This document shows positions 9,502 through 62,510 of a stretch of 64,000 bases of DNA, piece by piece; the first letter of the stretch is position 1, and every line of letters starts with the position of its first letter. Below the pieces are notes generated by a model, which did not search any database, was not told the origin of the DNA, and saw only the letters and a program-made list of their open reading frames with translations. Source of the DNA: an uncultured Thermoanaerobaculia bacterium (GTDB taxonomy: Bacteria; Acidobacteriota; Thermoanaerobaculia; Thermoanaerobaculales; Sulfomarinibacteraceae); assembly GCA_964552395.1 (NCBI GenBank), contig CAZKGM010000004.1, positions 4,749 through 68,748 on the forward strand, in the 5' to 3' direction. Made by a program: the position numbers and the translations under genes.

Positions 9502-9566
9502 GGTGCCTGGGCCGGCACTTCTTGTACTTTCACTGGGCTGCCACCCGCCGAGATCAGCCCTCGGAC
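9502..9566 (+). repeat. intergenic repeat element, copy E (left-arm fragment)
   Basis: GGTGCCTGGGCCGGCACTTCTTGTACTTTCACTGGGCTGCCACCCGCCGAGATCAGCCCTCGGAC. It overlaps the last codons and stop (9554..9556) of the minus-strand kinase gene. Confidence 0.6.
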
Positions 9567-33649: not shown

Positions 33650-35389
33650 TCAGTACGGGCAGCCCGGGTTGCACGCCTTCAGCTGGACCATAAAGTCGAC
33701 CTTGGTGTCTCCCAGGTCCTCGTGCCGTGTGTAGGACTTCTGCACGTACGATGTCTTCTTCTTCGCATCGGTGAGAACCTGCAACGCGAACGGTTCTGAG
33801 CTCTTTCCGCGTTCCTTGTGTGTACCGCGCGAGAGAATGAATTGGGCCCCCTGGTAGGGGATCTCGACGCGGGTGACGTACGGGATGGGCAGCGCCGGCT
33901 CGAGCATGATGTAGAAGAGGAGGCCCTTGACGCGGTCTGGATAATCCATCGTCGCCGCCTTGAACTTGATCGCCATCTCGTTTCCCTGCAGCAGCCCCTC
34001 GACCGGCACGAAGAAGTAACCCGGCGTCACTCCCAGCTTGGCGAGTGATGCTCGCGTCAGCTTCCCGACCTCGGCCAGATGTGCGTTGACGCCTAACGGA
34101 GCCGCCCGGGTGAAGTGAGCGATCGTGAAACGCCTGAGGTTCGGCTGCAGGAGTACAGCGTCGTCCCAGAGCTTGTCGAACTGCGCCGCCCCCTCAAACT
34201 CTCCGCTCAGCTGTGCCGGCGTCCCGGCGTTCTTGTCGTAGCGCAGCGTCATGATGCCGGACAGCCGGATGTCATACACCAGCCAGGGCTTTCGGCCTGT
34301 GTCGTACTCCACGTGAAGCGACGCCTCGAACGGCCCCTCGTATTTCTCGCAGTAGACGCCGAACACCTCCATCGCGGTGAAGCTGATGGCATCGGAGATG
34401 TAGCCGTTCACCGCACCTTCCCAGCTTGTAACCGGCTGGAAGAACTCCTTGGCGTGCCTTGCAAGGGTGTCGACCGCGAACTTGGCGTCGGAATGTGCGG
34501 CCAGGTAAGGCACCCTCGTGCTGACGCGAGCGGCAAAGCTGTTTCCGAGCACCCCGAGGGCGATGTCCAGGGGCTCCTTCAGCAGCAGGAGCGCGTTGCC
34601 GAGGAAGGTGATCGCCTCGCCCGCCATGTCCAGGCGGTTGCAGTCCGTGATCCCCACAGTGACCTGTCCCGCCCGCCGCACCAGCTGCTTCGCGAGCTCA
34701 TCCCCTTTCTCCTTGAGCTCGCCGAAGGCGTCGTAGATCGGCTGCACCTCGGGCATTGCGTCCGGATACTGCTTGACGATCTCATTCACGTCGTTCATCG
34801 CCGTTTGCAGGTTTGCGACCTGCGCAGGAGCCTGTGCCAACTGCTGCCGAATCGTCTTCAGACGGTGCAGCAGCTCCTGCTGTGGTGGCGACGCCGGGAC
34901 TTTTCCCACCTGGGTTGCGAGCGCCGCGACCTGCCCGTCCACCTTGTCGAGTAGCGTCTTGACAGCGGCGACTGTCTGTTGGGTGAACTCGACCGGCGCC
35001 GCGGCCACGAAGCTGGTCGTGGCCTTGGCCTTGCCATCCGGGGAGACCGCGGTCACATGGTACTTCCCGATCTTCTGGGGTACGTAGGAGACGTGGAACG
35101 AGCCGCTCGCCTCGAGCTTGGCCTCGATGACGTGTTCGGAACCCGCTGGCGGCTGAACACGAACGACGACCGTGTTGCGCTGTCCCAGCGCAACGCTCGT
35201 GCCCTGAATCTGGACCGTCTCTCCGGGCAGTGCCAGCGACCTGCTGACCCGCGCGTCGATCGGCGTGGCGACTTTCTTCATCTCCTGGGCTTGCGCAGAG
35301 CCGACACCGAGCAGCTCGGTGGCAAGCAGCGCGAGCAAGATCCGATGGGATCGTCGGGCGCTTCGACTCAAACCGTGTTCTCTCGACAT
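33650..35389 (-). CDS. large secreted hypothetical protein (Ig-like N-terminal region, coiled-coil segment, unknown C-terminal domain)
   Basis: Track ORF 33650..35713. ATG 35389 gives MSREHGLSRSARRSHRILLALLATELLGVGSAQA (signal). A Gln/Ala-rich helical stretch follows (PPQQELLHRLKTIRQQLAQAPAQVANLQTAMNDVNEIVKQ). No family recognised. Its stop is 35 nt upstream of the OmpA-family gene, so the two are likely an operon. Confidence 0.7.
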   Translation of the reverse strand: MSREHGLSRSARRSHRILLALLATELLGVGSAQAQEMKKVATPIDARVSRSLALPGETVQIQGTSVALGQRNTVVVRVQPPAGSEHVIEAKLEASGSFHVSYVPQKIGKYHVTAVSPDGKAKATTSFVAAAPVEFTQQTVAAVKTLLDKVDGQVAALATQVGKVPASPPQQELLHRLKTIRQQLAQAPAQVANLQTAMNDVNEIVKQYPDAMPEVQPIYDAFGELKEKGDELAKQLVRRAGQVTVGITDCNRLDMAGEAITFLGNALLLLKEPLDIALGVLGNSFAARVSTRVPYLAAHSDAKFAVDTLARHAKEFFQPVTSWEGAVNGYISDAISFTAMEVFGVYCEKYEGPFEASLHVEYDTGRKPWLVYDIRLSGIMTLRYDKNAGTPAQLSGEFEGAAQFDKLWDDAVLLQPNLRRFTIAHFTRAAPLGVNAHLAEVGKLTRASLAKLGVTPGYFFVPVEGLLQGNEMAIKFKAATMDYPDRVKGLLFYIMLEPALPIPYVTRVEIPYQGAQFILSRGTHKERGKSSEPFALQVLTDAKKKTSYVQKSYTRHEDLGDTKVDFMVQLKACNPGCPY

Positions 35390-35689
35390 CTTCCTACTCC
35401 TCGTCTGCCGGTCCCGAGGTCGACTGGCTGGCCGGGGTCTCTCCTGACTCGAACAACGCATTTCATCCTGAAGGGGGGCCATCGAGGCTCTCCAACCGGA
35501 TCGCAGTCCGCTTCGGGGGACGAGATTTCTCTTCGTTGGAGCGAAGTGTAGCAGACGGCTACGCTTCGGGATCGGACTGAGCACGGCTCCACGAGGCCCT
35601 GTTCCACAACGGGCGTAAGATGGACGCACGTCCGAAACAGGGTCTATCCGGGCAGGTATGGTTGTACGAACGGGATCGAGGAGGTCCAC

Positions 35690-36316
35690 ATGCGATCGTC
35701 GTTGGTTCATCACGTAGGTGTAATGATGCTGGGAGCTTGCGTTGCACTGTCTGTCGGGTGCGGCGGCGGAAAGACCAGCTCCGAACCGGCCGCGTCCACG
35801 GCCGGTGAAACTGTTGACCAGTCACCGCGCGGGTCGAGCGCGGTCGCCATCTCGCGGGCATCCGTCGAGAGCTGCGGCGGATTCACTGTCGAGAGAGCCG
35901 CCGGGATTCTCGGGGTCGACGCCTCGAGGTTGGTCGACAAGAGCGCCTGGGCATCGTGGTCGGACCAGCAGCGGGAGTGCCTGTTCCGGGATCGTGAGGA
36001 CCTTGCCGGGCCCTCGGTCTGGTTCAACCTGACGATCGAAGAGTCGGTGGACAAGGCGGCGTTGGGAATGGCCCAGCTGCGCGAGCACGCCGCCGTCGGC
36101 GGCAAGGCGATCGATGCGGTAACTGGAAGCAAGACGACGGAGTATGCCGACGCGCAGTTCGCCGGCATCGGCGATGAAGCGTTCTGGGTTGGTACCAGCG
36201 CCGCCCTGGCCATGCGCCGGGGCGACGTGACCGCGCTGATCGGTGTGCGAGGCGTCGACGGGGTGGTCGAGAAGACCAAGGTCGTCGCTCGCGAGCTTGC
36301 AGCCGGTCTGCACTGA
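35690..36316 (+). CDS. hypothetical lipoprotein
   Basis: 208 aa. GAGGAGG RBS. Lipobox MMLGACVALSVGCGGGK. No family recognised. Confidence 0.65.
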   Translation: MRSSLVHHVGVMMLGACVALSVGCGGGKTSSEPAASTAGETVDQSPRGSSAVAISRASVESCGGFTVERAAGILGVDASRLVDKSAWASWSDQQRECLFRDREDLAGPSVWFNLTIEESVDKAALGMAQLREHAAVGGKAIDAVTGSKTTEYADAQFAGIGDEAFWVGTSAALAMRRGDVTALIGVRGVDGVVEKTKVVARELAAGLH

Positions 36317-41273: not shown

Positions 41274-42302
41274 ATGAAGAACGTCGTGGTGACAGGGGCG
41301 AGCGGACACATCGGCTACGCCGTCGTCCGGGAGCTGGTGGATGGTGGTTACAAGGTGCGAGCCGGCATGCGGGGCATTGACAACGAAAAGAAGGCTGCAC
41401 GGCTGCGCGAGCTCGGCGTGGAGCTGTTCGAGTGCGACATGATGCGGCCCGAGACGCTCAGCGCTGCGTTCGAGGGGGCCGACGGGCTCTTCCACCTCGC
41501 CGCGGTGTTCAAGATCTGGGTCAAGGACGATCAGAAGGACGCCATCGAGCCCACCGTGCAGGGAGGCCTCAACGTGCTCGAGGCCGCCGCGGAGGCTCAC
41601 ATCAGGAAGGTGGTGTTCACTTCCAGCGGCGTCGCCGTCGGCCTGCAGGCACCCCCGGACCGGCCGCTGACCGAGGAGGACTGGGATCGCGGCGAGGATC
41701 GCTTCGCCTACTGTTACGCCAAGACCCAGGGCGAGGCGAAGGCGTGGGAGCTCGCGAAGGTACGCGGGCTGAGCTTGGTGTCCATTTGCCCGGGGCATGT
41801 CCTCGGGCCGTACATCTACCGGCACACGCCCACGACGACCTTCATCCAGAAGATCATGAACAACGAGCTGCCCGGGGCGCTCCCGATGGAGTTCTTCATC
41901 GTCGACGTCCGCGATGTGGCCAAGGCGCATGTCCTCGCTTACGAGAACGACGAGGCGTCGGGTCGCTACATCGCCATGAATGAACCGGGCATGCCGATGA
42001 CGGAGCTCATCGAGCTCATGCGCGAGTTCGATCCGAGTATCAAGGTGAAGGCCAAGGTGCTGCCGGGGTTCGTCATCAGCCTGGCCACGTTCCTCGATCT
42101 GATGGGGCACGTCTTGACGGGCCGGCCCCGGGAGCTCACCAGGGCCCTGGTCAAGGAGTTCACGAACAAGCACGCGGCGTTCAACACTGACAAGATCCGC
42201 CGCGAGCTGGGATGGCAGCCCCGCGATACCAGGGAGTGCGTCAAGGACACGGTCGCCTGGCTCAAGGAGCACAAGCCAGCCCCCTGGCACGCCGACGCGT
42301 AA
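41274..42302 (+). CDS. NAD(P)-dependent epimerase/dehydratase family oxidoreductase (extended SDR, dihydroflavonol/cinnamoyl-CoA reductase-like)
   Basis: 342 aa. Rossmann motif VTGASGHIGYAVV, catalytic YCYAKTQ (YxxxK). Length and pattern fit the extended SDR family. Confidence 0.85.
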   Translation: MKNVVVTGASGHIGYAVVRELVDGGYKVRAGMRGIDNEKKAARLRELGVELFECDMMRPETLSAAFEGADGLFHLAAVFKIWVKDDQKDAIEPTVQGGLNVLEAAAEAHIRKVVFTSSGVAVGLQAPPDRPLTEEDWDRGEDRFAYCYAKTQGEAKAWELAKVRGLSLVSICPGHVLGPYIYRHTPTTTFIQKIMNNELPGALPMEFFIVDVRDVAKAHVLAYENDEASGRYIAMNEPGMPMTELIELMREFDPSIKVKAKVLPGFVISLATFLDLMGHVLTGRPRELTRALVKEFTNKHAAFNTDKIRRELGWQPRDTRECVKDTVAWLKEHKPAPWHADA

Positions 42303-42533: not shown

Positions 42534-43136
42534 CTACTCGGAGGGCCTCCAGACTTTCCAGACGTTCCCCACCAGGCTCGGGCCCGGCTTGAGCACCGGG
42601 TCCCCCGGCATCCAGCCAGCCGGCGTCGCCTCCGCCCCCTTGCTGGCGCGAACCACCTGGTAGGCCTGGACCTGGCGTATCGTCTCGGCTATCCGCCGTC
42701 CTACCGGCGGCGTCAGCACCTCCATCGCCTGAACGACGCCATCAGGATCGATGATGAAGCGTCCGCGCATCTCGATCCCCTGGGTCTCGTCGTAGACGCC
42801 GTAGGCCTTGCCGATGTTGCCGGCCTGGTCGGACAGCATGTGGAAGGGCACGCCGCCTTCGACCATCTTGGTGAGCTCGTGATCGTTCCACATCTTGTGG
42901 ACGAAGTGGCTGTCAACGCTGACCGAGAAGACCTCCACCCCGAGCTTCTTCAGCTCCTGATACTTGTCGGCGACCGCCGACACCTCGGTGGCTCACACGA
43001 AGGTGAAGTCACCGGGGTAGAAGCAGAGCAGGATCCAGTTGCCGAAGTATTCCGAGAGCTGGACGTTGGTGAAGCTCCCGTTGTAGTAAGCCGGCGCGTT
43101 GAAGTCCGGTGCCTTCTGTCCGACACGTGCTGTCAT
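42534..43136 (-). CDS. prxU: selenocysteine-containing peroxiredoxin (AhpC/TSA family, PrxU-like); in-frame TGA at 42995..42993 read as Sec
   Basis: Track ORFs 42993..43247 and 42534..42983 are one reading frame split by a single TGA. AAGGAG RBS then ATG 43136 gives MTARVGQKAPDFNAPAYYNGSFTNVQLSEYFGNWILLCFYPGDFTFV-U-ATEVSAVADKYQELKKLGVEVFSVSVDSHFVHKMW...RGRFIIDPDGVV...EATPAGW.. The TGA sits exactly where the peroxidatic Cys of the FYPxDFTFVCPTE motif is. A SECIS-like hairpin follows. Confidence 0.8.
42965..42982 (-). promoter_or_regulatory. candidate bacterial SECIS hairpin
   Basis: mRNA sense: UGA-GCCACCGAGG-UGUCGGC-GGUC-GCCGACA. A 7-bp perfect stem starts 10 nt after the UGA. The 4-nt apical loop GGUC contains the G-U expected from the E. 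coli fdhF SECIS paradigm. Confidence 0.65.
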
Positions 43137-43273
43137 GAGCTTCTCCTTCAGGGGTTCGTCGGTTTCTGACGGCGCCGTACCGTTGGGCGAGGGCTCGCCC
43201 AGAACGGCACCGGTGACGCGGGCACATCCCTCAGGTTGCTCTGCCATTTGACCCCCTCTTCTGCCTCTCCTCC

Positions 43274-43578: not shown

Positions 43579-43606
43579 TTGACATTTATATAAAGAGTTA
43601 TATATT
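43579..43606 (+). promoter_or_regulatory. near-consensus promoter with embedded palindrome, upstream of padR (transcript likely leaderless)
   Basis: TTGACA (43579..43584)-16 nt-TATATT (43601..43606). The spacer and -10 contain the perfect palindrome TATATAA-agag-TTATATA (43587..43604). ATG 43614 is only 7 nt past the -10 hexamer. Confidence 0.55.
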
Positions 43607-43613
43607 GAGGTTC

Positions 43614-44219
43614 ATGAGCCTCGATCATGTCCTCCTTGGGTTGCTGCGCGAGCCGGCCAGCGGCTACGACCTCAAGAAGCTCGTCGACGAGAGGATCTGC
43701 CATTTCTGGGCGGCCGAGCTGAGCCAGATCTACCCGACCCTGAAGCGGCTCGAGAAGCGGGGCCTGGTGCGCAGCCGCTCGGCCGTGGCCAAGCGCGGCC
43801 GCGGCCGGCGCGTCTACGGCCTGACCCCCGCCGGGCGCGACGAGCTGCGGGCCTGGCTGGGCGGCCCGCCGCACTTCGCGGCGGAGCGAATGGCCTACCT
43901 CGCCCAGCTCTACTTCATGGGCGAGCTGGAGGACCTCCATCAGACGCAGCGCTTCTTCCGCGCGGTGCGCGAGCGCTTTGCTGCGAAGCTCGCGACGCTC
44001 GCGTCCATCGAGCGCATGTGGGCGGCCGCTGACCCCCGCTACCCGCAACGCCTACCCGATGAGGACCTCCACGTGCACCTGGCTCTGCGCAAGGGGATGC
44101 ACTCACTGCAAGCGCACCTCGAGTGGTGCGATGAGTCGTTGACCACACTTAATGAGCGGCTCGAACCGACGGGTCCTGGACAGGAAACGGCGGCCGCAGT
44201 CCATCAGGAGGGCCTGTGA
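43614..44219 (+). CDS. PadR-family transcriptional regulator
   Basis: Track ORF 43605..44219. MSLDHVLLGLLREPASGYDLKKLVDERICHFWAAELSQIYPTLKRLEKRGLVRS is the canonical PadR winged-helix N-terminus. It has a long C-terminal helical domain (PadR-like subfamily 1). Confidence 0.85.
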   Translation: MSLDHVLLGLLREPASGYDLKKLVDERICHFWAAELSQIYPTLKRLEKRGLVRSRSAVAKRGRGRRVYGLTPAGRDELRAWLGGPPHFAAERMAYLAQLYFMGELEDLHQTQRFFRAVRERFAAKLATLASIERMWAAADPRYPQRLPDEDLHVHLALRKGMHSLQAHLEWCDESLTTLNERLEPTGPGQETAAAVHQEGL

Positions 44220-44944
44220 CCGAGCACGAATCAGCGCCCGCCCCGAACGGCTGCCCCACACCGGTTGCCTCTTTCCGGCACACGGCGATCCTCATCGCCA
44301 TCTTCCTCGTCATTGCAGCCGCCGGTGTCTTTTTCCAGGAGGCCCCCGCCCCGGACGTGACAGCGGCGGCGCTGCACCCCAGGGTGGCGCCGCTCTACCT
44401 CTCGCTGCTGGTAGCCGAGTGGGCGTTGCTCCTCTATACCTGGCGGGTCGGTCTGCGCCCCCGCGGCGTGCAGCTCAGGGACCTGATCGGGGGACGCTGG
44501 AGCGGCTGGCGGGCGGTGGCGCGCGATGTCGCCCTTGCCGCCGGGGCCTGGCTCACATGGCTGGGCATCGAGCGTGTGACCATGCTCTGGCTGGGGGCCG
44601 GCCATACCCGCGCCATCGACCTCTACCTGCCACAGCGGCCGGCCGAGGTGGTCCTGTGGGTTGCCCTGTCGCTGAGCGCCGGCTTCTGCGAGGAGGTCGT
44701 CTTCCGCGGCTACCTGCAGCGCCAGCTCGCTGCAGCGACGCGCAGCCGGCCGGCCGGCCTCGTCCTCCAGGCGGTGATCTTCGGCCTGTCGCACGGCTAC
44801 CAGGGGCTCGCGGCGACGATCCGCATCACCCTCTTCGGGCTGCTCTACGGCGGGCTCGCCCAGTGGCGGAAGAGCCTGCGCCCGTGCATTGCGGCACACG
44901 CGTGGACTGACGTCTGGACGGGGTGGTTGTCGCTGCTGCGGTGA
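44216..44944 (+). CDS. CPBP-family intramembrane glutamic endopeptidase (CAAX protease-like)
   Basis: 242 aa. Motif 1 FCEEVVFRGYL, motif 2 FGLSHGY, motif 3 IAAHAWTD. Multiple TM helices. The start overlaps the padR stop (GTGA). Confidence 0.85.
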   Translation: MTEHESAPAPNGCPTPVASFRHTAILIAIFLVIAAAGVFFQEAPAPDVTAAALHPRVAPLYLSLLVAEWALLLYTWRVGLRPRGVQLRDLIGGRWSGWRAVARDVALAAGAWLTWLGIERVTMLWLGAGHTRAIDLYLPQRPAEVVLWVALSLSAGFCEEVVFRGYLQRQLAAATRSRPAGLVLQAVIFGLSHGYQGLAATIRITLFGLLYGGLAQWRKSLRPCIAAHAWTDVWTGWLSLLR

Positions 44945-45442: not shown

Positions 45443-45649
45443 CCCGATCAACGGACCGCCGGCAACCCGACGCTCGCCCCCCAGAGGTGTCACGTGTCGG
45501 TTTGTCCCATCACCGGGGGAGAGGCCAGAGGTACCAAGACTGTCGGCGCTGGTACTGATCCAGATCACGCGACGCGCCGTGAGCCCGCGTCCCGGACCGG
45601 TTTGCTGGGCGCCTGGCGAGAGGGCGCTGCAGCCGCCTGTAGGGTCGAT

Positions 45650-48127
45650 GTGAGACCGGAGCGCTGGCAGCGCCTGAAGGAGCTGTTCGAGCAGGCCCAA
45701 GGTCTCGAAGGGGCCGAACGCGAGCGCTTCCTCGACGAGCAGTGCGGGGGCGATCCGGAGCTGCGGGCCGAGGCTGCGTCCCTGCTCGCGGCCGGGCAGA
45801 GCGCCGGCGGCTTCCTGGAGACCCCGGCGGCGGAGACGCTGATGCGCGATCTGGAGGTCTCCGGCCCCTCGCCGCTGGGGCGGCGCTTCGGCCCGTACCG
45901 GGTGATCTCGGAGATCGGGCGCGGCGGGATGGGGGCCGTGTACCGGGCGGTGCGCGACGACGACGCCTTCCGCAAGGAGGTCGCCCTCAAGCTCCTGCAC
46001 ACCGACCTCGGCTCGGAGTTCTTCGCGGAGCGGTTCCGGCGCGAGCGCCAGATCCTGGCGTCGCTGGAGCACCCCAACATCGCCCGCCTGCTCGACGGCG
46101 GCGCCGACGAGGCCGGCCGCCCCTACTGCGTGCTGGAGCTGGTCGAAGGGGTGCCGATCGATGTCTACTGCCGGGACCACGGCCTGGATCTCGCGGCGCG
46201 CCTCGAGCTGGTCCGCACCGCGTGCGGCGCGGTCGCCGCGGCCCACGGCCGGCTCATCGTGCACTGCGACCTCAAGCCCGCCAACGTGCTGGTCACCGCC
46301 GACGGCACGCTCAAGCTCCTCGACTTCGGGATTGCCAAGCTGCTGGCACCGGACGAGGGCGCCGCGGGCGCCTCGGTGACGGCCGCCGCCTGGTGGATGA
46401 CGCCCCAGTACGCGAGCCCGGAGCAGGTGTGCGGCGGGCAGGTGACGACGGCGACCGACGTCTACGCCCTCGGCGTGATGCTGTACGAGCTGATCACCGG
46501 GCGTCGCCCGTACGACCTCGGCTCGCGCAGCCCCGACGAGATCGTGAGAGCGATCTGCGTGCGGGAGGTGACGCGCCCGAGCCAGGTGGTGATGCGGCCG
46601 CCATCGACCCCGGCGGACGGCGACCCGGCGGCGCCGACGAGTCCGGCCGGGCAGTCGCATGGGGGAACGGCGACACGGGTCGACCCACCCGACACCAACC
46701 TCCGTCGCCTGCGGCGCCGCCTCGAGGGCGACCTCGACACGATCGTGATGCGCGCATTGGCGAAGGAGCCCGAGCGGCGCTACGCCTCGGTCGTCCACCT
46801 GGCGGAGGATCTGCGCCGCTACCTCACCGGCTTTCCGATCCAGGCGCGGCCCGACCGGCTCGCCTACCGGGCGCGCAAGTTCCTGGGGCGGCACCGGACG
46901 GCCGCGGCGGCTATGCTGATCGCCCTTGCCAGCCTGTGCGGAGGCCTGGTCGCGACCGTGCACCAGGCGCGCGTGGCCCACGCGCAGCGGCTGGTCGCCG
47001 AGCGCCGCTTCGACGAGGTGCGCCAGCTCGCTAGGACGTTCATCTTCGAGATTCACGACGACGTCGCGGCGCTGCCCGGCTCGACCCCGGTCCGCAAGCG
47101 GATCGTGGAGCTGGGCCTCGAGTACCTCGAGCGGCTCGAGAAGGAAGCGGGCAACGACACCGGCCTGCAGGCCGAGGTCGCCGCGGCCTACGAACGGATC
47201 GCGGCGGTGCAGGGCGGGGTCGGGATGCCGAACCTCGGCGACACGGCGGGAGCGGTTCGCAGTCAGCGGCGGGCGCTGGCGCTGCGCGAGGCCGTGGCCC
47301 GCGCCGCGCGCGAAGATCTCGGCGCCCAGCTCGCGTTGGCCACGGCGCACAGCACGCTCGGCGACCTGCTGGGGGCGGCCGGAGACTCCCGAGGCCGCCG
47401 GGCCGAGTATGACGCGGCGCGAGCCATCCGCGAGACTGCGGCCGAGCGGGCCCCGGGCGACCCGGCGGTACGCCGCGCCCTGGCCTCGAGCATCTGGGAC
47501 TCGGCACAGCTGCGGGTCGACGACGGCGATCTGCAGGCCGGCCTCGCGGGTTTCGAGAAGGCCCTCGGGCACTACCGGGTCCTCGGCGAGGCGCCGGAGG
47601 CGAGCGACAGGGACCGCCGCAACCTCGGCCTCGCGTACAAGAAGGTGGGGGCGGTGCGGTCGGTCGTCGGCGACCGGTGGGGCGCGCTCGACAGCCTGGG
47701 GGCGGCGCTCGCGATCGACGAGGCGCGGCTAGCGGCCAGGCCGAACAACCCCGAGACCATGCTCGACGTGTCATTCGACCACGGCGATCTGGGCTACGTG
47801 CTGCTGCAGTTGGGCCGCGCGCGCGAGGCCGTGGTGCAGTACGAGCAGGCGCTCGAGCTGCGCCGCAAAGTGGCGGCCGCCGACCCCCGCGACGTGCGCG
47901 CGGAGAACGTCCTGCGCAGCGGGTGCTTGCGGCTGGCGGGAGCGCTGGCGGCGGTGACGGCCGAGGAGGGTGTGCCCTGCTCGGAGGTCCGGCGCCTGGC
48001 GGCACGCGCGCTGACCCTGTGGGGCGATGCCGAGGCCGGCGGCGCCCTCGACGCCGATTCCGTGGCTCAACGCAGGAGGGTCAAAGCGGCCGCGTTGCGT
48101 TGCTCGGCCGGTTCCGGACCTCGTTAG
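45650..48127 (+). CDS. serine/threonine protein kinase with C-terminal TPR-like repeats
   Basis: Track ORF 45494..48127. The proposed GTG 45650 gives (M)RPERWQRLKELFEQAQGLEGAERERFLDEQCGGDPELRAEAASLL, an N-terminal module typical of this kinase class. Kinase motifs GRGGMGAVYRA, ALK, VHCDLKPANVLV, DFGIAK, YASPEQ. A TM segment (AAAAMLIALASLCGGLVA) is followed by TPR-like helices. Confidence 0.85.
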   Translation: MRPERWQRLKELFEQAQGLEGAERERFLDEQCGGDPELRAEAASLLAAGQSAGGFLETPAAETLMRDLEVSGPSPLGRRFGPYRVISEIGRGGMGAVYRAVRDDDAFRKEVALKLLHTDLGSEFFAERFRRERQILASLEHPNIARLLDGGADEAGRPYCVLELVEGVPIDVYCRDHGLDLAARLELVRTACGAVAAAHGRLIVHCDLKPANVLVTADGTLKLLDFGIAKLLAPDEGAAGASVTAAAWWMTPQYASPEQVCGGQVTTATDVYALGVMLYELITGRRPYDLGSRSPDEIVRAICVREVTRPSQVVMRPPSTPADGDPAAPTSPAGQSHGGTATRVDPPDTNLRRLRRRLEGDLDTIVMRALAKEPERRYASVVHLAEDLRRYLTGFPIQARPDRLAYRARKFLGRHRTAAAAMLIALASLCGGLVATVHQARVAHAQRLVAERRFDEVRQLARTFIFEIHDDVAALPGSTPVRKRIVELGLEYLERLEKEAGNDTGLQAEVAAAYERIAAVQGGVGMPNLGDTAGAVRSQRRALALREAVARAAREDLGAQLALATAHSTLGDLLGAAGDSRGRRAEYDAARAIRETAAERAPGDPAVRRALASSIWDSAQLRVDDGDLQAGLAGFEKALGHYRVLGEAPEASDRDRRNLGLAYKKVGAVRSVVGDRWGALDSLGAALAIDEARLAARPNNPETMLDVSFDHGDLGYVLLQLGRAREAVVQYEQALELRRKVAAADPRDVRAENVLRSGCLRLAGALAAVTAEEGVPCSEVRRLAARALTLWGDAEAGGALDADSVAQRRRVKAAALRCSAGSGPR

Positions 48128-48857: not shown

Positions 48858-51653
48858 TCACTGTACCCGTTGCGGCGGGATCGTGATCGGGTCTCCGAAC
48901 CGGTTGACCCGGAAGGCCCTGACGTAGAGCGGCCCGGTCGACGTGATCTCGAGCCGCTTGACGTTGCCGTTCTGGCTCGACTTGATGGCCGTGATGATGC
49001 TGTTGGTCTGGATCAGCTCGCCGCCCCGGACCACAAGCTGGGTCTGTCCCTCGAGCTGCCCCGTGGCGCCGTCGTGAAGCTCCACGGTGAGGGTCACGGA
49101 TGAGGTTCCGGGGTTGAAGGCGGCGATGTTGCTCCGCTCCCGGCCGTTCTGGTCCTGGAGCTCGCGCAGGCCGAGCAGGTGGTAGCGGACGCCGGCCTGG
49201 AGGAGCTCGCCGGGGAGCATGCCCGGGATCAGCTGACCCGCGGTTCCGATGACCGTGCCGTGGGTGTCGCGGAAGACGGCGTACTCGCGGCCGCTGGCGC
49301 TGATCAGGGTGCCGTTGAGGGTCGTCAGGCGTACGGTGCCGACGCCCTGGAGGCCGAACAGGTCGCCGACGATGTCCTCGTACCCGACCGTCGAGCCGCC
49401 CGGGATGGTGAACGTCGTGGTGGCGTCAACACCCGGCTTCGAGCGCGCGTAGAAGTCGGCGCGGACCTGGGCCGTCCCGGTGCTGAAGTTGGTGATGCTG
49501 GCGGAGCCCGTGAACTCGTTGAGCCCCTGCACCGGGCCCAGCTCGAGCAGGGTCACCTCGTGCGCGCCGGCGGTGACCGGCAGGATCGTGGTCGGGTCGC
49601 TGGTCCCGGCGTAGACGATGTTGCCGTCGAGGATGCTGGCGTACGCGAGCGCCTTGCCGGCGGTCACCTGCACCGCAATCAGGATGTTGTCGCGCGGGGA
49701 GACTTTGAAGGTGGTGAAGATGTTGTTCAGCTGCTGGTTGGCGCCGTTGTTGAGGTCGTATGACTTGCCCGTCGCCAGCGGCGAGCCGATCCGGTCCATC
49801 GGGGTGACTGTGACGTGGGTTCCGTCAGCGAGCCCCATCAGGCCGACGTTGACGCGGTAGACCTGGGCGTTGACGGTGCTCGCCAGATAGCCAATCTGGC
49901 CGGCCGTCAGCGCGTCCGTCGACCGCAGCGCCGGGAAGAACTGCCCGAACTCGCTGCCGTCGGACTTGCGTGCGAACACCACGCTCTGGGCCAGCAGCTC
50001 GCCACTGGCAACAGGCGCCCCGCTCGTGTCCCTCAGCTCGAGGAGGAGGCTGCCGACGGCGGCGTTGCCGCCGCTGAAGCCGAACCAGGCCGCCAGCGGG
50101 TCGTCGACCTCGAGCTGGCCGCCGGCCGGCAGCGGCACCATCGCGGTGCGCGGGTTGCCGCCGATGTCGGTGCGCGGGGTGTAAGTGACGGCCACCTGGC
50201 GGGCGGCGGTGCCGGCGGAGTAGAGGTTGATGCGGGAGGTGAAGAAGGCGCCGCTGCCCTGAACCCGCGCGGCCGCGGGAATGGCGGTCGGGTCGCTGAC
50301 CGGGGTGAAGACGTTGAACAGGCGCCCCTGGATGCTGTAGCCGTTGGTGTCACTGCCGGAGGAGCCGTTGCTCTCCCACACCACCAGCATGCGGCCGTTG
50401 GGGGCCAGGGCCGCCGCCGGGTAGCTCTGCTCGCCCGAGGTGTAGGTGTTGGCCTGGACGTCGCTCGCGTCGATGACGGCGCCGGATCCCTTGAATGCCC
50501 TGAGCTGGATGCTGTAGTCGGAGTTGTCGTTGCCGGCCGAGCCGTAGCTCTGCCAGGCGAGTGCACAGGTGCCGTTCGGGGCGATGGTCACCGAGACGTA
50601 GCGTTGATCGTCGTTGGTGTAGGTGTTGATCTGGACGTCGTTGCCGTCGGTGAAGGCGCCGGTCGGATCGAGCCTCCTGGCCTGGATCGAGATGCGGGAG
50701 GTGTCGTTGCCGAAGGTGGCGCCGAAGCTCTCCCAGCCGACGATGGCACTGCCGTCGGAGGCCATCGCGACCGAGGGGGTGGTCTGCGACCCGCTCGGGT
50801 AGGTGTTGGCCGTCTCCTGCGGGCCGTTCGCGGTCACGCCCTCCGTGACATGGTCGTCCGCCGTGAAGTAGCGGATGGCGATGTCGTTGCTGGTCGCGGG
50901 GTCCCTCCAGGCGGTGAGGTAGGTCAGCTTGCCGTCGGTGGCGATGGCCGGCTCATCCTGGTCGCCAGAGGTGACGTTGTTGACCAGGAACTGGCTGAAG
51001 AAGCTGCCGTTTGCGGCGCTGAAGTGGCGACCCTGGATGCTGACGCCGGGGTCACCACCGGCGCCTCCTGGGCTGCGCCAGACGACGAGAAAGTCGCCGT
51101 TGTCCGCCATTGCCACCGCGGGCGCGACCTGGTCGCCGGACGTGTACGCGCTGTTGACGAGCAGCTCCGGCCCGACCTTGGCGCCTGCGGCGTTGAAGCG
51201 CTGGGCCATGATGTCGAAGCCGGTCGTGGCGGAGTGGTTGCTCTCCCAGACGACGACGAAGTCGCCGGTCGAGGTCATCGCCACCGCGGGCGCCTCCTGC
51301 CGGTTGGCGGTGGAGGTGTTGACCTGGAACTCGGTCCCGACCGGGGTGCCGTCCGCGGTGATAAAGCGGGCCTGGACCGACAGCCCGTCGGAGTCGTTTC
51401 CAGCGGAGGCGGAGCTCTGCCAGACGACGACGAAGTTGCCGGCCGCGTCGTGCGCCACCGCCGGCTTCTCCTGAGAGCTGTAGGTCAGGGTGTTGACCTG
51501 GAACTGGCCGGTCCTCGGGGTGGTGGCGAGGGCGGCCGCCGAGGTCCCGAGCAACAGAACGGCAGAGGCGAGGGTGGAGCCCACGACTCGCACCGAGCGG
51601 CGCGCACGGGGCGATGTTGAGATTGGCGACGACCAACTGTCTTGACGGGACAT
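48858..51653 (-). CDS. large secreted repeat protein: 7 x 'F-x-V-N-T-x-T-x-x-x-Q-x-x-P-x-V-A...G-x-F-V-V-V-W-x-S' units (putative beta-propeller) plus three C-terminal beta-rich domains
   Basis: Track ORF 48858..51713. AGGAGG RBS then ATG 51653 (MSRQDSWSS..SAVLLLGTSAAALA signal). The repeats are QFQVNTLTYSSQEKPAVAHDAAGNFVVVWQS, EFQVNTSTANRQEAPAVAMTSTGDFVVVWES, ELLVNSAYTSGDQVAPAVAMADNGDFLVVWRS, QFLVNNVTSGDQDEPAIA.., ETANTYPSGSQTTPSVAMASDGSAIVGWES, DVQINTYTNDDQRYVSVTIAPNGTCALAWQS, DVQANTYTSGEQSYPAAALAPNGRMLVVWES. Confidence 0.8.
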   Translation of the reverse strand: MSRQDSWSSPISTSPRARRSVRVVGSTLASAVLLLGTSAAALATTPRTGQFQVNTLTYSSQEKPAVAHDAAGNFVVVWQSSASAGNDSDGLSVQARFITADGTPVGTEFQVNTSTANRQEAPAVAMTSTGDFVVVWESNHSATTGFDIMAQRFNAAGAKVGPELLVNSAYTSGDQVAPAVAMADNGDFLVVWRSPGGAGGDPGVSIQGRHFSAANGSFFSQFLVNNVTSGDQDEPAIATDGKLTYLTAWRDPATSNDIAIRYFTADDHVTEGVTANGPQETANTYPSGSQTTPSVAMASDGSAIVGWESFGATFGNDTSRISIQARRLDPTGAFTDGNDVQINTYTNDDQRYVSVTIAPNGTCALAWQSYGSAGNDNSDYSIQLRAFKGSGAVIDASDVQANTYTSGEQSYPAAALAPNGRMLVVWESNGSSGSDTNGYSIQGRLFNVFTPVSDPTAIPAAARVQGSGAFFTSRINLYSAGTAARQVAVTYTPRTDIGGNPRTAMVPLPAGGQLEVDDPLAAWFGFSGGNAAVGSLLLELRDTSGAPVASGELLAQSVVFARKSDGSEFGQFFPALRSTDALTAGQIGYLASTVNAQVYRVNVGLMGLADGTHVTVTPMDRIGSPLATGKSYDLNNGANQQLNNIFTTFKVSPRDNILIAVQVTAGKALAYASILDGNIVYAGTSDPTTILPVTAGAHEVTLLELGPVQGLNEFTGSASITNFSTGTAQVRADFYARSKPGVDATTTFTIPGGSTVGYEDIVGDLFGLQGVGTVRLTTLNGTLISASGREYAVFRDTHGTVIGTAGQLIPGMLPGELLQAGVRYHLLGLRELQDQNGRERSNIAAFNPGTSSVTLTVELHDGATGQLEGQTQLVVRGGELIQTNSIITAIKSSQNGNVKRLEITSTGPLYVRAFRVNRFGDPITIPPQRVQ

Positions 51654-51988
51654 TGCGTTCCTCCTGTACGGTTGCCGATCCGTGGTTGCGCCCGCGGCGC
51701 TGCCGTAGTGCACGCCCCGTCGGCCGCGAGACCCGCTCGTTCGCCGTGGCAGCCCGAGTGAGTCCTACCAAGGAACGCGGGATTTCGAGCGACTGGGTAT
51801 CATCAGCGGTGTCAGCACCCCGGATTGCCGGCGCCCCGGGGCACGCCGCCCTACCAGTCTGCGGCTGAGGCCGCGGTTCGGCAGTTACGGCGCTGCCCAG
51901 CGTCGATTGGAGCATGGGGGTTCTTGACTGGGGATCGGACCTGGGGTAGGTTCTGATAGAAGGTCTCAGAAAGCCCGGGAGGTGCGTT

Positions 51989-53711: not shown

Positions 53712-55457
53712 GTGCACTTGCGGACTCCTCGGTACCTCGTCTTTCTTGCTGCCTTGCCGATGGTCCTGGCCGCCCTGACCCTGTCACCACGGGACTTCTT
53801 CGCCGGCGACTCCGGCGCCAAGTACATTCAAGCGGAGGCGTTTGCCTGGGGAAAGGGATGGCCGCGAGCGATTCCATACCCTGCGAGAGAGCTGGATCCT
53901 GCTCTGCAGCACATACCAGTTTCCATGGTCTCTGTCGATGGCCGTCTCGCATCGTTTTTTCCGTTTGCGTTCCCTCTGCTGGCCGGAGCGGGGCTCCACA
54001 TCGTGGGCGAGCGTGCGCTGCTGCTCCTACCTGCCGTTGCCGCCCTGATGGCTGCCTGGCTGGTCGGCTTGCTGGCGAAGCGTCTCGGGGGAGGGCCAAG
54101 CGGCGGGGTCTTGGCCGCCTCGATCGCGCTGGCGGCAACACCACTCATGTTCTACGGCGCGTGTCTGTGGGAGCACTCCCTCATGGCGGCGGTTGCGGTG
54201 GGCGTCGCCGAGAGAGTCGTCAGGGCGATCGAGGGCGCGGGCGACCGATGGCTCGTGTGGGCCACTGCCGGGTTCTTGGCCGGAATCGCAGGGTGGGTGA
54301 GGACAGAGGGGTTTGTTCTCCTTGCGATCGTGGTTGTGCCCCTGGCAATCCTGGGCCGGCATCGCGGCATCTGGCCGACACTGTCGACAACAATGGGAGC
54401 AGCGCTGGGTGTAGGCGCCGGCGCTCTGGTTCAGCATATGGTCCTCGGCAGGTGGCTTCCAATCCATCTGGTCGCGTGTGTCGTCAATCGCAACGTGTAC
54501 CGCGGCGGCTTCTTGGCGGACCGACTCCGGACGATTCGCAATATCTTCATCCCCGACCCCTGGGCGTGTGTCGCCCTGGGGCTGTGGCTACTTGCGGTTG
54601 TCCTGGCAGTCAGGCGCAGGAGCTTCCTCCGCATGGGCGCACGGACCTGGGGAGCGCTCGCCGTCGCGGGCGGACTGGCGGCAGCCCTCGGCGCTCCGGT
54701 GATCCGGTTCTTTCTCGGGGTATCGCCGTCGCTCGCCTTTCCTGTGAGAAGTACCGTCACGTGGGTGGCTCTCAGCGCACTTCCCGTGGTGCTGGCGGCT
54801 GCGGCTCCGGTGGAGGAGGACGCGAGGAGCAAGCACCGATTCGTGGCCGGGCTGTGCGTGTGGTATGTCGTGTCGTTCCTCATCATGAGCCCCGTGGATG
54901 GCGGGTATCAGTGGGGAGCGCGGATCTTCCTTCCGGTTGCGCTGTGGCTGACGGCCCTCATGGCCAGTCGTCTTCCGAGGAGCATGGGTGCCGCTCGGTG
55001 GGCTCGGGTGGCCATTGCGTCGGCCCTGGCCGCGGGTGTCCTGATTCAGATTCTGGGGATGGCCTTGCTCGTGCATGTGACCCGTGGCAATCACTCCTTG
55101 GTCGAGGCGTTCGCCCGGTCAACACGGCCGGGTGAAGCGGTGGTAACCGATACCTTCTACCTGCCCGAGCTCGCTGCACCTCTGTGGCGAGAGCGCCGGA
55201 TCCTGTTCGTCGGTCATCAGTCTGGTCTGCCTCAGGTTCTCGAGCGGCTCAGGACCTCCCGTGTCAAGCAGTGGGCCCTGGCGTCGTGCGATGACGCCAA
55301 TCTCGGTCTCTTGCAGGGCGTTCGCAACACTCTTGCCACCTCCGAAGCTCCTTGCCGGCAGGTCGGATTCCGGACTTTCCGAGTCGGGAGCAGGGTTCTG
55401 ACGGTTGCCGAGTTCAGTGGCACCCGACCGCACCCTGGGGAGGGGACCTCGCCATGA
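53712..55457 (+). CDS. large polytopic membrane protein, putative GT-C-fold glycosyltransferase (ArnT/PMT-like)
   Basis: 581 aa, GTG start, about 12 TM helices, then a soluble C-terminal ~120 aa. The general architecture and an early periplasmic-loop Asp (DSGAKYIQAE) resemble GT-C enzymes. The function is weakly supported. Confidence 0.5.
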   Translation: MHLRTPRYLVFLAALPMVLAALTLSPRDFFAGDSGAKYIQAEAFAWGKGWPRAIPYPARELDPALQHIPVSMVSVDGRLASFFPFAFPLLAGAGLHIVGERALLLLPAVAALMAAWLVGLLAKRLGGGPSGGVLAASIALAATPLMFYGACLWEHSLMAAVAVGVAERVVRAIEGAGDRWLVWATAGFLAGIAGWVRTEGFVLLAIVVVPLAILGRHRGIWPTLSTTMGAALGVGAGALVQHMVLGRWLPIHLVACVVNRNVYRGGFLADRLRTIRNIFIPDPWACVALGLWLLAVVLAVRRRSFLRMGARTWGALAVAGGLAAALGAPVIRFFLGVSPSLAFPVRSTVTWVALSALPVVLAAAAPVEEDARSKHRFVAGLCVWYVVSFLIMSPVDGGYQWGARIFLPVALWLTALMASRLPRSMGAARWARVAIASALAAGVLIQILGMALLVHVTRGNHSLVEAFARSTRPGEAVVTDTFYLPELAAPLWRERRILFVGHQSGLPQVLERLRTSRVKQWALASCDDANLGLLQGVRNTLATSEAPCRQVGFRTFRVGSRVLTVAEFSGTRPHPGEGTSP

Positions 55458-57169: not shown

Positions 57170-57505
57170 AGGCACGGCCGGAGGCGACTGCCCGGAATCG
57201 CTCGAGCCGCCTCCCTCGACGCCGAGGCTGCACGGCTGATCACGCTTGCCGTGAAGAGCCGCCCGTGACATTCCGCACCAGCGCGACGGGCTGGTGAAGT
57301 GCGTACAGCGGAGATGTCATAGATGGCACGTTCCGTCAAATGCACCATTCTCTGGAGCCCGCTTCAGTCCAGTTCTGCGAGGGGGTGGTGAGACCTAATC
57401 ACGTAACTACTTAAACACTTGATCACCGGGTCGGCGGGTGGGCGGGGACTCTTTCCCAGCGACGTTTCCTGTAGAATGGAGGTTGGACATGAGACGGAGG
57501 TCGAC

Positions 57506-57991
57506 ATGCACGACAAGAGCATCGAGGTTCTCAACGAGGCGATCGCCGACGAGCTCGCCGCCATCCACCAGTACATGTACTTCCACTTCCGGCTCGACGA
57601 TCTCGGCTATACGCCGCTGGCGAACCTGCTCAAGCAGACCGCCATCCAGGAGATGCAGCACGCCGAGATGATCGCCGAGCGGATCCTGTTCCTGGGCGGT
57701 GAGGTGGAGATGGTGGTGGGCCGCGAGATCGAGAAGATCCACGATGCCGAGGCCATGCTCAAGAAGGCCAAGTCGCTCGAGGAAGGGTCAATTGCCATGT
57801 ACAACGGCTTCGCCCTCGAGTGCTCGAAGAACGCCGACTCGGGCTCGAAGCAGCTGTTCGAAACGCTGGTCGCGGCCGAGGAGGGACACTGGGACCAGTT
57901 CGACCGCCAGTCGGACTTCGTGGCCCGCTTCGGCGAACGGTACCTGGCGCTGCAGTCGTTCCAGGGTGGCCCCGGAGAAGGCGGAGCCTAG
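57506..57991 (+). CDS. bfr: bacterioferritin
   Basis: Track ORF 57419..57991. GGAGG RBS 5 nt before ATG 57506. MHDKSIEVLNEAIADELAAIHQYMYFHFRLDDLGYTPLANLLKQTAIQEMQHAEMIAERILFLGGEV.. aligns with E. coli Bfr (..LN..L..EL.AI.QY..H.....W.....L........E.M.HA....ERILFL.G), including the ferroxidase Glu/His residues and the haem-axial Met (IQEM). Confidence 0.9.
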   Translation: MHDKSIEVLNEAIADELAAIHQYMYFHFRLDDLGYTPLANLLKQTAIQEMQHAEMIAERILFLGGEVEMVVGREIEKIHDAEAMLKKAKSLEEGSIAMYNGFALECSKNADSGSKQLFETLVAAEEGHWDQFDRQSDFVARFGERYLALQSFQGGPGEGGA

Positions 57992-60508: not shown

Positions 60509-60643
60509 GGGGGTGGTGAGCTGACGCCGGCCACAACGGTGGGGGTGTCGGTGACGGCGAGATACGGGAGCGCAACAGGCAGCAACGTCGAGGTTGACGT
60601 GGGCGTGCAAGCTTCCATGCATCGGGGATGCCGTTAAGTATGC

Positions 60644-61213
60644 TTGACCGAGCAGCCTGTGCGGGATACCGTAGCTCCGGTGAACGACTATGAGCGTGTG
60701 TGGCGTGCCTTCGAGGCCAACGAAATCACCCATTCCGGGGCGCACTACCTGCTCGCGATCGCAGCCGCAGTGAAGGCGGGGCAGGCGCCGCGGGCCGCCG
60801 ACATCGCGCGTCAGCTCGATGTGTCTCGCGCGGCGGTTTCGTTGCAGGTCCGCGCCCTCAAGGACCATGGCCTCGTGGTCGTGGACCCCCACCACCACAT
60901 CGGTCTGACGCGCGCGGGAGCGGATCTCGTGGCGCGGATCGCCGGCAAGCGCGAGGTCGTGAGGGTCTTCCTCGAGGAGGTGCTGGGAGTCGTTCCCGAG
61001 ACGGCGGAGATGGACGCTTGCAAGGTCGAGCACCTGATCTCCGAGCAGACCTGTGCTGCCCTGGTGCGTCTGATCACCTTCCTGCGTTCCGACCAACCCG
61101 CAGCCGAGGAGTGCCTGCAGGTCTTCCGTGAGACGGTCGCGGCGTGCGGACCGCTGTCCCGCTGTGACCTCTGCACCGAGGTCTGCCTGCTGAGCGCCAT
61201 GAGACCTTCATAA
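60644..61213 (+). CDS. DtxR/MntR-family metal-dependent transcriptional regulator with Cys-rich C-terminal region
   Basis: 189 aa, TTG start (uncertain). HTH and dimerisation pattern AADIARQLDVSRAAVSLQVRALKDHGLVVVDPHHHIGLTRAGADLVARIAGKREVVRVFLEEVLGV (DtxR: ..iA..L.vs..sV...v..L...Glv......i.LT..G...A....r.H...e.FL...Lg). The C-terminus is ..CKVEHLISEQTCAALV...ECL...CGPLSRCDLCTEVC. Confidence 0.7.
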   Translation: MTEQPVRDTVAPVNDYERVWRAFEANEITHSGAHYLLAIAAAVKAGQAPRAADIARQLDVSRAAVSLQVRALKDHGLVVVDPHHHIGLTRAGADLVARIAGKREVVRVFLEEVLGVVPETAEMDACKVEHLISEQTCAALVRLITFLRSDQPAAEECLQVFRETVAACGPLSRCDLCTEVCLLSAMRPS

Positions 61214-61322: not shown

Positions 61323-62510
61323 ATGGCTAATGTGGCCCGGATTCAGAAAGAGCTAGAGAAGGAAGGGGTCGACGGCTGGCTGCTGTACGACTTTCACAAC
61401 CGTGATGCGATCGCTTACCGGGTGCTCGGCATGGACTTCGGCAAGTTCACGAGCCGCCGTTGGTTTTACTGGATTCCCACCTCGGGGAAGCCGGTACGGC
61501 TGGTGTCCAAGGTCGAGTCCACGAAGCTCGACGCCCTCGAAGGTGAGAAGCGTGAGTACCTGTCATGGCGGGAGCTGCACGCGAGCCTGAAGGAGATCAT
61601 GGGTGGAGCGAGGCGGGTCGCGATGCAGTACTCGCCGACCGCGAACATTCCGTACGTGTCGACCGTTGATGGCGGCACCATCGACCTGGTGCGCTCGCTC
61701 GGCTTCGAGGTCGTGAGCTCGGCCGGCCTCGTGCAGATCTTCGAAGCGGTTCTCGACGATGCCGCCTACCAGTCGCACGTCGAGGCCGGCCGACGGGTGC
61801 AGAGGATCAAGGACGAGGCCTTCGATCGCATCGGCGCCGAGCTGCGTGCGGGCCGCGAGATCACCCAGTACGACGTGCAGCAGTTCATTGCGCGTCGCTT
61901 TACGGAAGAGGGCCTGACCTGCCAGGGCGAGTACCCGATTGTCGGCAGCGATGAGCAACAGGCCGACCCCCACTTCGAGCCGCGTCCGGACAACTCGCGG
62001 GCAATCCGCCGCGGCGACCGGATTCTCATCGACCTGTGGGCGAAGCTCGACGAGCCGGGCGCCATCTTCTACGACATCACCTGGTGCGGCTACGTGGGTG
62101 GGGAACCGCCGGCAAAGTACGTTGAGATCTTCAACGTCGTCCGGGACGCGCGCGATACGGCCCTTGCCTTCGTCCGCGACCGGTTTGGGAGCGGCGCGCC
62201 GGTGTACGGCTGGCAAGTGGACGACGCCTGCCGCAAGGTGGTCGAGGACGCCGGCTACGGGCCCTACTTCATCCACCGGACCGGGCACTCTATCGGCGAG
62301 GAGGTCCACGGCAACGGCGTCAACATCGACAACCTCGAAACCAAGGACGAGCGCCAGCTGGTAGCCGGGATCTGCTTCTCTATCGAGCCCGGGATCTACC
62401 TCCGCGGCGAGATGGCCGTGCGCTCCGAGATCGATGTCTTCATCACGCCGTCCGGCAGCATCGAGGTTGCCGGCGACATGCAGCGCGACCTGATTCTGAT
62501 CGATGCGTGA
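61323..62510 (+). CDS. M24-family Xaa-Pro aminopeptidase / dipeptidase
   Basis: Track ORF 61266..62510. GGGAGG RBS then ATG 61323 (MANVARIQKELEKEGVDGWLLYDFHNRD). Pita-bread fold metal ligands: D..D (ILIDLWAKLDE..YDITW), HRTGHSIG.EVHG, SIEPGIY, SEID. Confidence 0.85.
   Translation: MANVARIQKELEKEGVDGWLLYDFHNRDAIAYRVLGMDFGKFTSRRWFYWIPTSGKPVRLVSKVESTKLDALEGEKREYLSWRELHASLKEIMGGARRVAMQYSPTANIPYVSTVDGGTIDLVRSLGFEVVSSAGLVQIFEAVLDDAAYQSHVEAGRRVQRIKDEAFDRIGAELRAGREITQYDVQQFIARRFTEEGLTCQGEYPIVGSDEQQADPHFEPRPDNSRAIRRGDRILIDLWAKLDEPGAIFYDITWCGYVGGEPPAKYVEIFNVVRDARDTALAFVRDRFGSGAPVYGWQVDDACRKVVEDAGYGPYFIHRTGHSIGEEVHGNGVNIDNLETKDERQLVAGICFSIEPGIYLRGEMAVRSEIDVFITPSGSIEVAGDMQRDLILIDA

Follow-up and report, generated by a model that had tools for sequence, protein, structure and literature searches.

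A UGA at the peroxidatic position of a Thermoanaerobaculia peroxiredoxin gene is very probably a selenocysteine codon

When a TGA interrupts a peroxiredoxin reading frame exactly at the codon of the catalytic residue, does it end the protein or does it encode selenocysteine (Sec)? The question is raised by a 64,000-nucleotide stretch of contig CAZKGM010000004.1 (assembly GCA_964552395.1) from an uncultured Thermoanaerobaculia bacterium of the Acidobacteriota, here called the window, which has a GC content of 66%. On its minus strand, the open reading frames (ORFs) 42993..43247 (84 amino acids) and 42534..42983 (149 amino acids) lie in one frame, and the sole separator between them is the TGA at 42995..42993. 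Read through, the two translate as ...NWILLCFYPGDFTFV*ATEVSAVADKYQELKKLGVEVFSVSVD..., or over a longer stretch as ...LLCFYPGDFTFV-[TGA]-ATEVSAVADKYQELKKLGVEV..., after which 152 unbroken codons lead to the terminal TAG. An earlier note on this DNA had joined the ORFs in this way, had proposed a Sec-containing peroxiredoxin and had expected automated annotators to split the gene or to call it a pseudogene. Direct reading and translation confirm the join, and JGI and Logan gene calls do split the gene, into fragments of 84 and 149 residues; in NCBI and Logan the 149-residue piece lies on a 174 kb contig. Three independent metagenome assemblies contain the identical 714-nucleotide gene with its TGA, which excludes sequencing error. 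We conclude from the comparisons described below that the locus is very probably an intact and functional prxU, encoding a thioredoxin-dependent peroxiredoxin of the AhpC/Prx1 type with Sec as its peroxidatic residue.

PrxU family membership and active site

For scoring with hidden Markov models, Cys was substituted for the Sec/stop position of the query protein. NF040737 (peroxi_PrxU), an NCBIfam equivalog model with a cut-off of 270 bits, scores the 200-residue form of the protein at 380 bits and the 237-residue form at 391.6 bits, the latter match covering model positions 2-232 of 233. The next-best NCBIfam model, AhpC, reaches 190 bits, under its own cut-off of 272. Pfam matches are AhpC-TSA (PF00578, E 1e-38), Redoxin and 1-cysPrx_C. 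Set against the cut-off, the PrxU scores support the identity that had been proposed from the letters of the sequence.

The nearest solved structures are those of typical 2-Cys peroxiredoxins (6j13, 1we0, 1qmv and 1n8j; E ~1e-44 over residues 41-224, with 6j13 at E 1.7e-44). In alignment with them, the UGA falls on the peroxidatic Cys (FYPLDFTFVCPTE in 6j13 versus FYPGDFTFV-U-ATE here), precisely where the earlier note had located it within the AhpC/Prx1 active-site block. P78, T82, U85 and R161 occupy invariant columns of the family alignments. The window protein shares with the solved relatives the FYPxDFTFV-(C/U)-xTE block, the conserved Arg and a C-terminal region of the 1-cysPrx_C type. 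It differs from them in carrying Sec for the peroxidatic Cys, in having Thr208 for the resolving Cys, and in possessing both an extra invariant Cys75 and an N-terminal tail with Cys8. A counterpart of Cys75 is absent from 6j13 (LFFYPLD). Typical 2-Cys peroxiredoxins have a C-terminal resolving Cys in a VCP motif; because Thr208 stands at this position, the window protein is not one of them, though it shares their structural subfamily. In the PrxU alignment this column is strongly dominated by Thr, Ala or Cys occurring in few rows. In an AlphaFold2 model of a 77%-identical homologue (P0001), confidence as measured by the predicted local distance difference test (pLDDT) exceeds 90 over the peroxiredoxin domain.

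A covarying hairpin follows the UGA

Directly after the UGA and a short spacer, the mRNA can fold into a hairpin of the selenocysteine insertion sequence (SECIS) type, with a perfect 7-bp stem and a 4-nt loop, lying within the codons for V-S-A-V-A-D-K. Such a hairpin, with a G-U in its loop and 10 nt between it and the UGA, had been described in the earlier note, and both the sequence and the fold agree with that description. The spacing lies in the range expected of SelB-dependent genes, about 10-40 nt 3' of the UGA. In the window gene, 8/8 pairs form when G27-C30 is counted, and the loop reads GGUC.

A scan of species-representative genomes for prxU returned at least 597 loci, of which the best 80 were examined; these genomic orthologues and the window gene are the 81 sequences referred to below. 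Over the 60 nt around the UGA they align without gaps. Across them, 94.5% of the hairpin cells are paired, and the two sides of the stem change together: 71 double-sided pair changes are observed versus 15.1 ± 3.3 in shuffles, none of 500 shuffles reaching the observed count. The covariation score is 0.332; shuffles give 0.113 (0/500), and slid registers do not exceed 0.116. Pair 24-33, formed by the third positions of two codons (Ser3 and Ala3), is GC in 54 sequences, AU in 20, CG in 3 and UA in 3, and is never unpaired. A second wobble pair is GC in 41, UA in 13, AU in 12, CG in 2 and GU in 2, with 10 sequences unpaired. Covariation is also seen between loop positions 1 and 4 (GC 66, AU 14), and G28 and U29, at loop positions 2 and 3, are invariant in 81/81. 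A G-U at this place in the loop is what SelB recognizes. At least 7 of the 8 pairs are present in 76/81 TGA forms. Judged from the alignment, this pattern of covariation cannot be attributed to constraint at the protein level.

Conservation of the hairpin among TGA-containing orthologues, which the earlier note had predicted, is thus borne out by the paired cells, the compensatory changes and the universal G-U loop. Its further expectation, that conservation of the element would be confined to TGA forms, is supported in direction. The hairpin is weaker in seven homologues with TGC (Cys) at the Sec codon, a small sample in which 3-8 of 8 pairs form (median 5) and the G-U loop is kept in 4/7; one of the seven, considered in the next section, retains the whole stem. 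The likeness that had been drawn to the SECIS of Escherichia coli fdhF also stands. The fdhF sequence used for the comparison has exact matches in 5413 genomes under fdhF annotation. Both elements are in-ORF hairpins just after the UGA with an identical apical loop, GGUC, which starts 19 nt after the UGA in fdhF and 18 nt after it in the window prxU.

Alternative explanations of the UGA

Several observations weigh against the reading of this locus as a functional Sec-encoding gene, and we collect them here. Taken singly, the window sequence folds only modestly better than chance (71 nt; z = -2.0; 8/200 shuffles equally good), so that the case for function rests on the comparison between sequences. 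The element also departs from that of fdhF: its stem is a perfect 7 bp (8 with G27-C30), the bulged U of the fdhF-type upper stem is absent from both the window and the consensus stem, and the consensus has no extended lower helix. A bulged U is not known to be universal among bacterial SECIS elements. Rfam gave no family match, either for the whole window at gathering thresholds or for 42800..43200 at E <= 10; no existing covariance model covers the prxU SECIS. The Cys homologue L092 keeps 8/8 pairs, with GAUC in place of the GGUC loop, and hairpin loss in Cys forms is consequently a tendency, not a rule; this sequence has the appearance of a recent change from Sec to Cys, after which the stem persisted and the G-U disappeared. 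On the side of the enzyme, the step by which a further thiol would resolve the oxidized Sec is a conjecture, and AlphaFold2, applied to the 77%-identical homologue, gives no evidence that Cys8 docks on the active site. Lastly, the window yielded no selA, selB or selD (Pfam scan of 30 ORFs, with NCBIfam on the neighbours), and ARAGORN found in it neither a tRNA-Sec nor any other tRNA. The same program found no tRNA in 60 related loci.

The missing sel genes and tRNA-Sec would suit a bona fide prxU whose host has lost the Sec-decoding machinery, leaving the gene a recently stranded relic that can no longer be expressed. Synteny with relatives is not conserved, which is compatible with horizontal transfer and hence with such a history. 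However, nothing can be concluded from a lack of sel genes in 64 kb when the genome spans several megabases, and the UGA, the ORF and the fully paired hairpin with its GGUC loop have all stayed intact. The protein, moreover, is 81-85% identical to PrxU proteins of related Acidobacteriota that have the same UGA and hairpin architecture, the closest genomic orthologue (85%) coming from Acidobacteriota assigned to Ca. Sulfomarinibacteraceae/Thermoanaerobaculia. We regard a stranded relic as highly improbable.

Passage through the UGA without Sec, whether by reassignment to Trp or Gly under genetic code 4 or 25 or by near-cognate or Cys insertion, would give a protein with Trp, Gly or Cys at position 85. 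Public records appear to contain just such proteins: a protein database search returns thousands of relatives, and among the 120 best homologues the Sec column holds W in 87 (FTFV-W-ATE), G in one and Cys in 8. The W and G entries, however, are products of gene calling: on short contigs the callers adopted code 4 or 25. In the window, TGA terminates 16 of 31 ORFs with high GC at third codon positions (GC3), with complete Pfam domains just upstream; TGA is therefore a normal stop elsewhere in this DNA, which excludes genome-wide reassignment. An enzyme with Trp or Gly in place of the peroxidatic residue would have no catalytic activity, and a conserved SelB-type hairpin with an invariant G-U has no role in simple read-through. 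We consider Sec-free decoding exceedingly improbable.

A Cys-peroxiredoxin gene inactivated by a TGC-to-TGA change would make only the 84-residue N-terminal fragment. A single-base change suffices for this, and gene callers do report two fragments. Yet the same TGA occupies the Sec column in 80/80 of the best genomic orthologues, which come from more than 10 phyla; the taxa represented are Acidobacteriota, Chloroflexota, Gemmatimonadota, NC10, Thauera, Thiobacillus, Desulfobacterota, Nitrospirota, Marinimicrobia, Spirochaetota, Synergistota, Planctomycetota and others. All 152 codons downstream are intact, with complete domain matches, and against 11 relatives the ratio of nonsynonymous to synonymous substitution rates (dN/dS) is 0.04-0.15 both before the TGA (46 codons) and after it (145 codons). 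Such low values after the TGA imply that the downstream part is translated. The earlier note's observation of uninterrupted peroxiredoxin-like sequence beyond the TGA and its dismissal of a nonsense pseudogene both hold, and all the checks at sequence level for which it had called turned out in support of it. Conservation of the TGA, covariation in the hairpin and strong purifying selection downstream effectively refute inactivation, to which we assign almost no probability. Nor is there any real likelihood that the locus makes two proteins, an N-terminal one of 84 residues and another of 149 residues from the GTG at 42983 that opens the downstream ORF in a mechanical ORF list. No Shine-Dalgarno (SD) sequence stands ahead of this GTG, which is a conserved Val codon inside the 5' arm of the hairpin, and a split at the active-site loop would part the P-T-U catalytic motif from both Arg161, which is conserved, and the remainder of the thioredoxin fold. 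Recoding of the UGA as Sec in an intact prxU is the reading that we retain.

Start sites and the N-terminal tail

The earlier note had begun the gene at the ATG at 43136, behind an AAGGAG motif. Motif and ATG are both present and conserved, but the gene had been cut short by 37 codons. Ahead of the peroxiredoxin domain, 80/81 sequences have an in-frame N-terminal extension of about 37 residues that begins M-x-E and contains the family motif G-C-A-R-[P/V]-T-G-x-[V/P]-[V/L]-G-E. All 80 sequences that bear the motif have the tail Cys, and in 78 of them it precedes Sec by 74-80 residues. Among close relatives the motif shows free synonymous variation, and it is always in frame with the domain. A start codon with an SD-like motif is found at the equivalent upstream place in 74/80 orthologues, gene callers begin the 84-residue fragment at ATG 43247, and NF040737 covers the extension, the addition of which accounts for the rise in score from 380 to 391.6 bits. 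The ORF is therefore 42534..43247, with 237 residues, and translation most probably starts at ATG 43247 rather than at 43136.

Only one of the 80 TGA orthologues (L039:3001-3600) is without the Cys extension; its ORF opens at the internal Met. The tail motif also occurs in the TGC (Cys) homologues L082, L083 and L085, so the tail is not specific to Sec. In the AlphaFold2 model of the 77%-identical homologue, the first 40 residues are disordered (pLDDT <55). No chain in the PDB covers the Cys8 tail, and a limited literature search found no description of the motif.

The internal SD-like motif, together with an ATG or GTG at the start of the peroxiredoxin domain, is kept in 80/81 sequences. Its Lys-Glu dipeptide is encoded AAG-GAG in 58/60 cases, versus the ~25% expected from Lys and Glu codon use in the same genes, and in 11/12 loci with GC <50% (binomial p = 5e-33 for the bias, a value that ignores shared ancestry). 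From codon choice across these genes, the bias is nucleotide-level selection for an SD sequence, and the conserved pairing of this internal SD with ATG 43136 suggests that a shorter isoform of 200 residues is also made. It is conceivable, though in our estimation rather doubtful, that the PrxU family uses an undescribed dual initiation, in which a long form with a resolving tail Cys and a short form without it differ in reductant or regulation.

Features of the locus

Coordinates of the features discussed above are given in Table 1.

Table 1. Positions of prxU features in the window
Feature	Position	Strand	Remarks
prxU coding sequence, long form	42534..43247	-	237 codons including Sec85; only interruption TGA; stop TAG 42536..42534
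Probable true start ATG, long form	43245..43247	-	Purine-rich GAGGGGG upstream at 43258..43252
N-terminal motif G7-C8-A-R-V-T-G-A-V-L-G-E18	43194..43229	-	Cys8 codon 43226..43224
Internal SD AAGGAG and ATG	43134..43148	-	AAGGAG 43148..43143 (Lys-Glu codons), ATG 43136..43134; possible second initiation site
Cys75 (LLCFYPGD)	43023..43025	-	Ten residues before Sec; invariant in alignments A1, A3 and A4
UGA codon 85, predicted to be read as Sec	42993..42995	-	Peroxidatic position of PxxxTxxU motif (P78, T82, U85)
UGA-hairpin spacer, 10 nt (GCCACCGAGG)	42983..42992	-	Same length in 81/81 aligned sequences
SECIS-type hairpin	42965..42982	-	UGUCGGC 42982..42976, loop GGUC 42975..42972, GCCGACA 42971..42965
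Thr208 (ACG)	42624..42626	-	Position of canonical C-terminal resolving Cys; EATPAGW replaces usual VCP motif

The gene is convergent with an SDR/epimerase gene (41274..42302) and divergent from genes for a PadR-family regulator (43605..44219) and a CPBP protease (44216..44944). The SDR, PadR, CPBP and kinase neighbours accompany prxU in 0/85 related loci, and the context therefore offers no functional clue. A promoter and terminator scan found none on the minus strand for prxU. On the plus strand, a sigma-70-like promoter (TTGACA-16-TATATT, 43579..43606; 11/12 consensus matches) sits at the very start of the PadR-family gene, which may for that reason be leaderless or begin further downstream (the JGI call has 201 amino acids). 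The end of this gene is overlapped by the protease gene, whose product is CPBP/Rce1-like.

The window was also searched for a second selenoprotein gene, defined by an in-frame TGA flanked on either side by GC3 of the coding type, and none was found. The only match, the TGA at 62508..62510, is an ordinary gene boundary with an SD and a GTG, and a junction at 56681 that was considered as a candidate is likewise an ordinary gene boundary.

Farther off, at 14-18 kb from prxU, lie plus-strand genes for a ferritin/rubrerythrin-like protein (57407..57991) and a DtxR-type iron-dependent repressor (60638..61213). These are neighbours from oxidative-stress and iron homeostasis; an operon link to prxU is not evident. 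Two large genes encode Ser/Thr protein kinases (9554..11818 on the minus strand and 45494..48127 on the plus strand), the second followed by an ECF sigma factor gene in the source's gene calls (L086). Three large ORFs, 48858..51713 (951 amino acids), 33650..35713 (687 amino acids) and 53712..55457 (581 amino acids), have no Pfam match at E <= 1e-5.

Proposed mechanism and comparison with known systems

Given the conserved UGA and SECIS architecture and the established bacterial Sec pathway, the hairpin, with its loop G-U exposed, would recruit SelB-GTP-Sec-tRNA(Sec) to the ribosome. The UGA at codon 85 would thereby be recoded, Sec would be inserted and translation would continue for a further 152 codons. 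By analogy with peroxiredoxin chemistry, the Sec85 selenolate would then reduce peroxide and be converted to a selenenic acid. Because the canonical C-terminal resolving Cys is absent, we propose that another thiol resolves this intermediate, as analogy suggests is probably the case. Conjectural candidates for that thiol are Cys8, which is near-invariant and located on the flexible tail, and Cys75, which is invariant, and the resulting selenenylsulfide might, again by analogy, be reduced by thioredoxin. A literature search for PrxU found no mechanistic detail.

A precedent for the suggested role of Cys8 may be found in the mammalian selenoprotein MsrB1, whose N-terminal Cys4 is required for thioredoxin-dependent turnover (PMC1278935). 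This selenoenzyme, too, is without the usual resolving Cys of its Cys-containing homologues, and a Cys on a flexible N-terminal segment leads to a selenenylsulfide that thioredoxin can reduce. In contrast with PrxU, MsrB1 has an unrelated fold and reaction; the PrxU tail, for its part, is present in Cys homologues too.

Two publications (PMC13188914, PMC9312934) place Prx (TxxU) among the bacterial selenoproteins verified by experiment, with reference to Sohling et al. 2001. PrxU of Eubacterium (Peptoclostridium) acidaminophilum has in common with the window gene an AhpC/Prx1-type fold, a UGA-encoded Sec at the TxxU peroxidatic position and a SECIS directly downstream of the UGA within the coding sequence. 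Its host is a Firmicute, whereas that of the window gene belongs to the Thermoanaerobaculia. The characterized protein is said to have ~203 residues, roughly the short form, whereas the window gene and its relatives (80/81 in all) carry the 37-residue Cys-bearing extension.

Significance

Sec-peroxiredoxins had been called rare in the earlier note. They are instead widespread and have a curated NCBIfam model, and the prxU described here adds an ordinary member to a selenoprotein family already well known; it is not a rarity. Sec-peroxiredoxins have been known since 2001 and ranked with the most abundant selenoproteins of the earliest marine metagenomes. The scientific addition made by the present locus is accordingly small, the family being known and curated, and its practical value lies in annotation. 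The closest protein matches (89-93% identity) are fragments of 149-151 residues cut at the TGA, and the PrxU family is systematically mis-recorded in public databases, either as split fragments or with W or G at the Sec site. The comparative set amounts to an unusually clean covariation proof of a SECIS within a coding region. Only two parts of the system, the conserved Cys tail and the internal start site, could lead to something new. For the organism itself, the presence of prxU marks this member of the Thermoanaerobaculia as a likely user of selenium.

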